Positions 52,332-55,061 of a stretch of 56,332 nt of DNA are shown here, piece after piece. The DNA comes from an uncultured Candidatus Saccharibacteria bacterium. Lineage in GTDB: Bacteria; Patescibacteriota; Minisyncoccia; Phycocordibacterales; WO2-35-19. The position numbers and the translations under genes were made by a program. Location of the stretch: assembly GCA_964440955.1 (NCBI GenBank), contig CAYTTP010000003.1, positions 1-56,332 of the forward strand, given 5' to 3'. Position 1 is the stretch's first letter. Each line of letters opens with the position of its first letter. The notes beneath the pieces were generated by a model. It was not told the DNA's origin. It saw nothing but the letters and a program-made list of their open reading frames with translations, and did not search any database.

Positions 52332-53357
52332 ATGAATTTTTGGAATAAAATGGAAAAGCCGATCCTATGCCTTGCACCAATGGCCGATGTTACCGATGCT
52401 AGTTTTCGTCGTGTTATTTCCAAATGTTCAAAGATTGAAGGCAGTGTGCCTTTTGTCACCTGGACAGAGTTTGTCTCAGCGGATGGTTTGGTGCTTGCAC
52501 CCGAAAAAGGCAAGCAAAAGCTTTTAAAAGATTTGGAGTATGATGAAAGCGAGCGCCCAATAGTTGCCCAACTTTTTTCGGGTCGTCCAGAGATGATGGA
52601 AAAGGCTGCCTACTTGGTCGCCTCTTTGGGTTTCGATGGACTTGATATCAATATGGGCTGTCCGGACAAAAGTGTTGAAAAGCAAGGTGCTGGTGCTGCT
52701 CTTATCAAAAATCCCAATTTGGCTCGCGAAATTATTAAAGCAGCGAAGCGTGGAGTGGAAAGGTTTGCTGAAGAAAAAGGTCTTGAGGAGGCAATACCAG
52801 TATCGGTCAAAACTCGCCTCGGCTACAATCAAGACGAGCTAGAGACTTGGTTGCCGGAACTTTTGGCAGAGCAACCAGCGGCTATCACCATTCATGCGCG
52901 AACTAGAAAAGAAATGTCAAAGGTGCCTGCGCGATGGGAGAGGGTGAAGAGGGCGGTCGAGATAAGAGGAGGAGCCGAAAAGACACTTATCTTTGGCAAT
53001 GGTGATGTTGAAAATATCGATGAGGCGCTAAAGTTAGCAAAAGAAACAGGTTGTGATGGTGTGATGTTGGGGAGAGCAATCTTTGGCAATCCTTATATTT
53101 TTTCGAAGCACGAACCAACTTTTGAAGAGCAGCTTGTAGCACTTCTTGAACACACCAAGACTTTTGATACAGTATTGGGTGGGATAAAAAATTTTGCACT
53201 AATGAAAAAACATTTCAAATCATACCTTTCTTTGGGTACGAGACCTCATACACCAGAAATAGACAAAAGAGTCATAGCTTTAAAAGACGCTCTTCTTGAG
53301 GCTAAGGATGCCGGGGGAGTTATCACCATCATTTCAAATTTTTTGTCGTATAATTAG
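52332..53357 (+). CDS. tRNA-dihydrouridine synthase
   Basis: LAPMADVTD and DINMGCP motifs in a TIM-barrel Dus family pattern. Confidence 0.88.
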   Translation: MNFWNKMEKPILCLAPMADVTDASFRRVISKCSKIEGSVPFVTWTEFVSADGLVLAPEKGKQKLLKDLEYDESERPIVAQLFSGRPEMMEKAAYLVASLGFDGLDINMGCPDKSVEKQGAGAALIKNPNLAREIIKAAKRGVERFAEEKGLEEAIPVSVKTRLGYNQDELETWLPELLAEQPAAITIHARTRKEMSKVPARWERVKRAVEIRGGAEKTLIFGNGDVENIDEALKLAKETGCDGVMLGRAIFGNPYIFSKHEPTFEEQLVALLEHTKTFDTVLGGIKNFALMKKHFKSYLSLGTRPHTPEIDKRVIALKDALLEAKDAGGVITIISNFLSYN

Positions 53358-54656: not shown

Positions 54657-54729
54657 TGGTTGCCTAAGGGGTGATGTTTCTGGTACAATGCTCTCGTTCT
54701 TTGAAATTCCAAAAATTAGATTTTTTTGC

Positions 54730-55061
54730 TCCGGGATAGCTCAGCGGTAGAGCGAGCGACTGTGTCGTGACGCAGCTTCCAAAAGAAATTTTGGTTGAAA
54801 AACGAGGTGAATTCGGGGGAACCCCAAGTGGGCAATCCCGAGCCAATCCTAAATTAAAGAAAGATATTGTTGTGTAAAAACTTTAATTAAGGCAGGTGTA
54901 GAGACTATTCCGAAAGGAAGTACTTACTCCGTATTTCGGAGTCGGGAAGCGCCTCGCTCCTAATAGCCAATTTGGTTAAAGGAGATGATATAGTCCATAC
55001 TTCTAGTAATAGAAGAGAATATGTAATCGCTTGGTCGTAGGTTCGATCCCTACTCCCGGAG
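54730..55061 (+). tRNA. tRNA-Asn(GUU) interrupted by a group I intron in the anticodon loop; no CCA encoded
   Basis: Exons 54730-54763 and 55024-55061 join to give acceptor TCCGGGA/TCCCGGA (U1:A72, G73 as in tRNA-Asn), anticodon arm AGCGA-CTGTTAA-TCGCT, T arm GTAGG-TTCGATC-CCTAC. Confidence 0.85.
54764..55023 (+). ncRNA. group I intron (IC3-like), 260 nt, no ORF
   Basis: The 5' exon ends in U and the intron ends in G. GCAG (54772-54775) can pair with the exon CUGU as P1. The core strings GAATTCGGGGGAACCCCAAG, GAGCCAA and GGTGTAGAGACTA (54895-54907) match the conserved core of bacterial tRNA group I introns. Confidence 0.85.

Follow-up and report, generated by a model that had tools for sequence, protein, structure and literature searches.

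The segment at positions 54,730–55,061 of the window, by which we mean the whole 56,332-nt stretch of DNA analysed here, reads as a Patescibacteria (Paceibacteria-like) tRNA-Asn(GUU) gene with a group I ribozyme of IA type, 260 nt long and a member of the published 35/36 family, inserted between U35 and U36. We assign this reading a probability of about 0.93. A preliminary description of the same DNA had proposed that a group I intron interrupts the anticodon loop of this tRNA-Asn(GUU). On this point agreement comes from the Rfam match, from the one junction compatible with the U/G rule (U as last base of the 5′ exon, G as last base of the intron), from the U·G wobble in P1 and from covariation among relatives. 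The locus is laid out as follows:
54,730–54,763, + strand: tRNA-Asn exon 1, with the acceptor 5′ strand, D arm, anticodon-stem 5′ strand and C32 U33 G34 U35 (ARAGORN, junction enumeration).
54,764–55,023, + strand: group I intron, 260 nt, with omega-G at 55,023 (Rfam RF00028, junction enumeration, ARAGORN -i).
55,024–55,061, + strand: tRNA-Asn exon 2, with U36 A37 A38, anticodon-stem 3′ strand, variable loop, T arm, acceptor 3′ strand and G73 (sequence, ARAGORN).
54,660–54,689, + strand: tentative promoter-like site (TTGCCT, 18 nt, TG-TACAAT); the tRNA starts some 40 nt downstream.

The covariance-model check proposed earlier gave a score well clear of the cut-off. Using cmscan with Rfam, and again in a re-run on the sub-region, RF00028 (Intron_gpI) matched at 54,754–55,016 on the + strand with 78.2 bits (E = 3.1e-18; gathering score 50), and the match covered model positions 1–253 of 253. 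It was the sole non-tRNA Rfam match at gathering level in the 56 kb. An rli43 match (14 bits, E = 0.5) was dismissed as noise. ARAGORN -i alone also recovered the gene, reporting a tRNA-Asn(gtt) with a perfect cloverleaf and a 260-nt intron ('actgt-Intron-taatc'). Default ARAGORN on the window missed this gene and found no other tRNA-Asn; the ten tRNA genes that it did find (Glu, Ser, Ala, Leu x3, Lys, Cys, Tyr and Trp) lie scattered as singles or pairs. No second intron was found in the 56,332 nt.

The intron had also been described as lacking an ORF. Indeed, the ORF list holds no + strand frame of at least 40 aa within 54,764–55,023, no homing endonuclease was found among frames of that strand and length, and the loop L1 measures just 4 nt. 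The sole ORF that overlaps the intron is a minus-strand frame of 60 aa with a TTG start (54,664–54,846). Promoter-like sites in the region numbered 4 versus 2.6 ± 1.6 in shuffled sequences, which is chance level, and a search for a terminator-like site after the tRNA gene returned none.

To place the junction, we enumerated all six 7-nt anticodon loops that can be built from the two exon edges above the anticodon stem AGCGA/UCGCU. Only one of the six combines a 5′ exon ending in U with an intron ending in G, and it yields the exons 54,730–54,763 and 55,024–55,061. At the 5′ splice site, U(−1) is U54763, the final base of exon 1, and the intron closes with G55023, in line with the earlier claim of a 260-nt insert that follows a U and ends in G. 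The spliced loop reads CUGUUAA with the anticodon GUU, and ARAGORN called the spliced sequence a 73-nt tRNA-Asn(gtt). The body of this tRNA carries U1:A72 and the discriminator G73 (TCCGGGA...TCCCGGA-G), as read directly from the sequence, and both features are common to the window gene and the published Patescibacteria tRNA-Asn genes. The canonical spliced tRNA of the preliminary description, with its U1:A72, G73 and loop CUGUUAA, is thereby borne out. CCA is not encoded at the end of exon 2.

The insertion site lies between tRNA positions 35 and 36, that is, between U35 and U36, as had been proposed. We read it as 35/36 though ARAGORN prints 34-35, because the D loop lacks nt 17 and the printout is sequential. 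The 1–2-nt ambiguity at the junction suggested earlier disappears, since just one of the six loops obeys the U/G rule; a junction with a different anticodon had been named as a possible refutation, and the single U/G-rule junction yields GUU. A wider brute-force search for U/G boundaries, which required an anticodon stem of 5 bp, an anticodon of 3 nt, U33, purine 37 and, in P1, a G facing U(−1), likewise returned a single solution for the window intron, Asn 35/36. Unfiltered junction enumeration with ARAGORN had produced many spurious tRNA calls per locus, and the strict filters were imposed for that reason.

These data bear on the idea of a different junction, 33/34 for instance, and a product other than tRNA-Asn, such as tRNA-Thr(UGU). 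Calls of this kind by ARAGORN and tFind are frequent for relatives, many of which fit the U/G rule both at CU/...G/UGUAA (Thr) and at CUGU/...G/UAA (Asn). In the window, however, the base before UGUAA is an A (..AAUA/UGUAA); Thr(UGU) at 33/34 is excluded here because the intron would then end in A and break the omega-G rule. Moreover, P1 puts U35, not U33, in the U·G wobble, the U1:A72 and G73 body matches published Asn genes, and the strict search gives Asn 35/36 alone. We consider a junction elsewhere extremely improbable.

To examine the fold, we built an alignment of 27 introns, made up of the window intron and 26 relatives free of homing endonuclease genes, 4 of them published and 22 fetched. 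All 13 helices (P1–P9) drawn on the window sequence use standard pairs alone. The elements below all lie on the + strand; percentages are the paired cells of this alignment:
54,760–54,775: P1, exon CUGU plus intron GU against the internal guide ACGCAG at 54,770–54,775 (fold and alignment).
54,779–54,794: P2 hairpin with a GAAA (GNRA) loop; compensatory changes in 6/6 pairs (fold and alignment).
54,803–54,809: P3 5′ strand CGAGGUG, partner 54,950–54,956; 7 bp, 99.5% of cells paired, 3 pairs compensatory.
54,813–54,841: P4 UCGGGG/UCCCGA and P5 CCC/GGG; P4 100% paired, with 5/6 pairs compensatory.
54,842–54,897: P6 GCC/GGU, followed by P6a, a long hairpin whose A/U-rich loop has 21 nt (fold and alignment).
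54,901–54,907: P7 5′ strand G-A(bulge)-GACUA, the guanosine-binding-site helix, partner 54,991–54,996.
54,908–54,919: P7.1 hairpin UUCC-GAAA-GGAA; 4/4 pairs compensatory, 98% of cells paired.
54,923–54,945: P7.2 hairpin; 8/8 pairs compensatory, 91% of cells paired.
54,950–54,956: P3 3′ strand CGCCUCG (fold and alignment).
54,957–54,984: P8 hairpin; 10/11 pairs compensatory (fold and alignment).
54,985–54,996: J8/7 AUGAUA and P7 3′ strand UAGUCC (Rfam match, fold and alignment).
54,997–55,023: P9.0 AUA/UAU, P9 hairpin with a GUAA loop, and omega-G at 55,023 (fold and alignment).

Across the 27 tRNA-Asn introns, standard pairs occupied 91.4% of 1944 cells versus 71.1 ± 0.7% in shuffled alignments. 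Changes on both sides were seen in 57 of 79 pairs, and the covariation score was 0.495 versus 0.156 in shuffles; none of 500 shuffles matched any observed pairing or covariation value. When partners were slid along the alignment, 35–45% of cells paired, a control in which the structure is favoured by having been drawn from the window, itself a member of the alignment; the compensatory changes are unaffected by this. Helices with compensatory changes include P2, P4, P6a, P7.1, P7.2, P8, P9.0 and P9. Covariation backs the P3–P8 core, including the P3/P7 pseudoknot; P7 itself lacks such support because it is invariant in all 27 sequences.

Both splice sites fit this fold. U54763·G54772 forms the P1 wobble at the 5′ splice site and is flanked by G-C, U-A and C-G pairs; these four exon pairs, including the U·G, are kept in 27/27 aligned sequences. 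At the 3′ end, the 3-bp P9.0 directly precedes omega-G, and compensatory changes affect 3/3 pairs of P9.0 and 5/5 of P9. P10 would comprise at most 2 bp. Support for P8 is solid in the outer 5 bp, with the inner part aligned poorly. P6a of the window intron is unusually long, with 11 bp, one A·A mismatch and no ORF; within the 27-sequence alignment only a few other sequences have a P6a of this length, and in most relatives it is short.

The stretch between P7 and P3′ called for a choice between two models. RNAfold favoured one long hairpin on the 42-nt stretch (−13.8 kcal/mol) and two hairpins on a 40-nt segment (−13.7). The two-hairpin model, P7.1 plus P7.2, was chosen on covariation and not on energy, as compensatory changes are present in 12/12 of its pairs.

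This stretch also tells the subgroups apart. The preliminary description had noted core strings reminiscent of IC3 tRNA introns, and all three are present: AAUUCGG at 54,810–54,816, GAGCCAA at 54,840–54,846 and GGUGUAGAGACUA at 54,895–54,907. These strings cannot tell subgroups apart, because IC3-labelled tRNA introns hold them too (for example Acidobacteriota Ile2, with AAATTCGGGG, CGAGCCAAG and GGTGTAGAGACTT); the implied link to IC3 itself fails on the presence of P7.1 and P7.2. Subgroup IA introns, such as those of phage T4 td and Twort, have P7.1 and P7.2 between P7 and P3′; both of these phage introns reside in protein-coding genes and have other peripheral elements, and they are likened to the window intron by description. 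Extra helices at this place define subgroup IA in the Michel and Westhof 1990 classification. On its predicted anatomy, with P7.1 and P7.2 lying between P7 and P3′, and on the published labels of its relatives, the window intron structurally belongs with subgroup IA.

The comparison with reference introns weighs directly on the alternative that the window holds an IC3 intron, kin of the Azoarcus tRNA-Ile or cyanobacterial tRNA-Leu introns, that moved to a new tRNA site. Besides the shared core strings, L2 and L9 of the window intron are GNRA loops. The same is true of L2 and L9 in the Azoarcus intron. In IC3 introns, however, P3′ follows P7 almost directly, with spacings of 0, 3, 3 and 3 nt in the references (Nostoc Leu, Acidobacteriota Ile2 and Leu, and cyanobacterial fMet), versus 42 nt in all in the window, taken up by the two covarying hairpins. 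Spacings of 32–36 nt were found in two Asn introns labelled IA1/IA2 in PMC13011429 and in GCA_016700035. J8/7 likewise differs from all IC3 references compared, reading GAUAUAGUCC in the window versus GAGAGAGUCC, GAGAAAGUCC, GGGAUAGUCC or GGGACAGUCC in those introns. Consistently, PMC13011429 counts 25 of 28 introns at 35/36 as IA and none of the Patescibacteria tRNA introns as IC; for phyla other than Patescibacteria, it gives the Asn 35/36 introns the labels IA1 or IA2. A relocated IC3 intron is highly improbable on these grounds.

For the IA-type intron at 35/36, the following course of splicing may be proposed. The precursor would be transcribed as a single RNA, in which the intron would fold into its P1–P9 core. 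C32–U35 would pair with the guide 5′-GCAG-3′ (54,772–54,775) and thereby set U35 in the U·G wobble, and a free guanosine bound in P7 would attack after U54763. G55023, placed by P9.0, would then occupy the guanosine site in P7, and the freed 3′-OH of U35 would attack after G55023. Joining of the exons would give the mature tRNA with the loop CUGUUAA and G34-U35-U36 restored. With its anticodon interrupted by the intron, the precursor could not decode before splicing, which would be essential should no other tRNA-Asn gene exist in the genome.

Much of this scheme leans on published relatives. Nakagawa et al. (mSystems 2026, PMC13011429; preprint 10.1101/2025.07.03.662931) reported 15 tRNA-Asn(GUU) introns at 35/36 in a survey of 95 complete Patescibacteria genomes. 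In that study, a Saccharimonadia tRNA-Asn intron (GCA_016700035.1) spliced precisely in vitro in a GTP-dependent manner, a Microgenomatia tRNA-Asp 35/36 intron (GCA_001029755.1) also spliced precisely with GTP, and a change of omega-G to C blocked exon ligation. From these splicing reactions in relatives we infer catalysis by the window intron. For the two-hairpin form, too, activity is presumptive, since the Asn relative spliced in vitro has a single long hairpin, whereas the window intron has P7.1 and P7.2. A further proposal is that the two-hairpin form constitutes a distinct structural sub-class whose splicing is conditional or cofactor-dependent and gates the sole tRNA-Asn supply of a minimal genome. 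PMC13011429 speculates in general terms on RNA-level control of this sort; we regard the proposal as quite unlikely.

The preliminary description had considered an Asn host and a 35/36 site unusual. This view does not hold: the class was catalogued in 2020, and self-splicing in Patescibacteria has been demonstrated (PMC13011429). The census of Williams (bioRxiv 2020, 10.1101/2020.01.27.920355) used tFind to map bacterial tRNA introns by the U(−1)/omega-G rule and raised the four classical cases to 21, working computationally and without experiments; PMC13011429 equates the 35/36 tRNA-Asn class with its 'Asn.4Ug'. The window intron resembles those of Nakagawa et al. in host tRNA, site (CUGU/UAA), phylum and a core with the GCAGC internal guide. 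Its P7.1/P7.2 arrangement is shared with the listed introns of GCA_016699245, GCA_025999335, GCA_026016225, GCA_016700135 and GCA_030583845, and the listed members with this arrangement belong to Paceibacteria, Microgenomatia and Dojkabacteria. It differs from the listed introns in its 4-nt L1, the absence of an HNH gene and a longer P6a, and the locus itself is absent from the 15 listed in PMC13011429, which took complete genomes only. The window intron is an ordinary member of the published tRNA-Asn 35/36 family.

Sequence comparison supports the kinship. Blastn of the window intron against the published introns matched GCA_026016225 (E = 9e-10 and 5e-07), GCA_025999335 and GCA_016699245, with local identities of about 70–88% over segments and none identical to the window intron; the window intron and the published Asn introns align through the whole core. 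The classical IC3 tRNA introns (cyanobacterial Leu(UAA) at 34/35 and fMet, Azoarcus Ile and Agrobacterium Arg) are self-splicing, likewise sit in the anticodon loop after a U, are small, have no ORF and share P4, P6 and P7 core strings with the window. They differ from it in having no P7.1/P7.2, another J8/7, and other hosts and sites (33/34, 34/35 and 36/37).

The host of the window, which is a whole MAG contig, can be placed through a neighbouring gene. A tRNA-dihydrouridine synthase (Dus) is encoded at 52,332–53,357, and its named homologs come from the Patescibacteria group, Parcubacteria, Zambryskibacteria and Pacebacteria; these protein homologs would place the host in Patescibacteria. 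The region is carried at 100% identity by the Logan assemblies SRR13608702, SRR13608704 and SRR13608705. We looked in these three contigs for natural variation or an intron-less allele and found none.

The same data can be set against the suggestion that the locus is a tRNA pseudogene whose intron has decayed and does not splice, with a functional tRNA-Asn elsewhere in the genome. The view taken here extends over 56 kb of that genome, the intron has no homing endonuclease, and its overlong A/U-rich P6a could mark drift, all of which would suit such decay. Against it, the core helices and family-invariant positions are all intact and the exons give a perfect cloverleaf. In addition, interrupted and intact copies for one anticodon rarely co-occur in a genome (PMC13011429), and the assemblies from three sequencing runs are identical. 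We judge a pseudogene to be very unlikely.

With a tRNA-Asn gene interrupted by an IA-type intron, the practical consequence is one of annotation: as default tRNA finders miss the gene, a MAG of this sort would seem to be without tRNA-Asn and would score as less complete, a point about missed tRNA genes already made in PMC13011429. The locus adds one two-hairpin instance without a homing endonuclease gene, from a draft genome. Nothing at the locus alters the understanding of group I intron function.

We scanned contigs with an intron-core pattern consisting of AGAGACTA, 28–58 nt, AGCRCC, 18–48 nt and GAKATAGTCC, which matched at least 120 loci; the contig of the window itself is absent from the matches listed. 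Application of the strict junction procedure to the 120 matches listed gave the following hosts, as counts of listed loci and not frequencies:
tRNA-Asn(GUU), 35/36: 64 loci.
tRNA-Phe(GAA), 33/34: 16 loci.
tRNA with CAU anticodon, 36/37: 11 loci.
tRNA-Tyr(GUA), 35/36: 3 loci.
Other hosts: 4 loci; unresolved: 22 loci.

By record title, about half of the 64 Asn loci among the matches listed are from Patescibacteria. Labels among the remainder include Pyrinomonadaceae and other Acidobacteriota, Nitrospira, cyanobacteria, Eubacteriales, Binatia, Omnitrophota and Ignavibacteriota. Finding the same intron family in tRNA-Asn of MAGs labelled with many other phyla is a modest extension of the complete-genome survey. 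Among the loci listed, the P7–P3′ stretch of Asn 35/36 introns takes two forms, a single long hairpin or P7.1 plus P7.2. The single-hairpin form has a conserved UGAGGA..CCAAUAA interior and was seen in Saccharimonadia, Nitrospira, cyanobacteria and Acidobacteriota. The two-hairpin (type-B) form, seen in the window, in Paceibacteria-like MAGs and in some others, opens with P7.1, a helix of 4 bp that is often capped by a GNRA loop; a conserved GUA follows, then P7.2, which varies, and finally GGGAAGCGCC.

Among the matches listed, 18 of the 64 fetched Asn relatives are 450–602 nt long, and most of these have a + strand ORF of about 110–140 aa that starts in L1, downstream of the 5′ splice site and ahead of the internal guide. 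Of two such ORFs compared with Pfam HNH (PF01844), one scored above the cut-off and the other just below. These L1 ORFs agree with PMC13011429 and differ from the window, where L1 has 4 nt. The intron whose core is closest to that of the window among the matches listed (locus L078, 82–85% identity) is yet 560 nt long and carries an HNH-type ORF in L1. This ORF (intron nt 24–320) has an in-frame TGA where its counterparts in L055 and L061 have Trp (LTRS*E versus LTRSWE), which would point either to decay of the homing endonuclease gene or to a MAG that recodes UGA. In another relative (L113), a run of N lies between duplicated pieces of the core (P4–P7), which looks like a scaffolding artefact.
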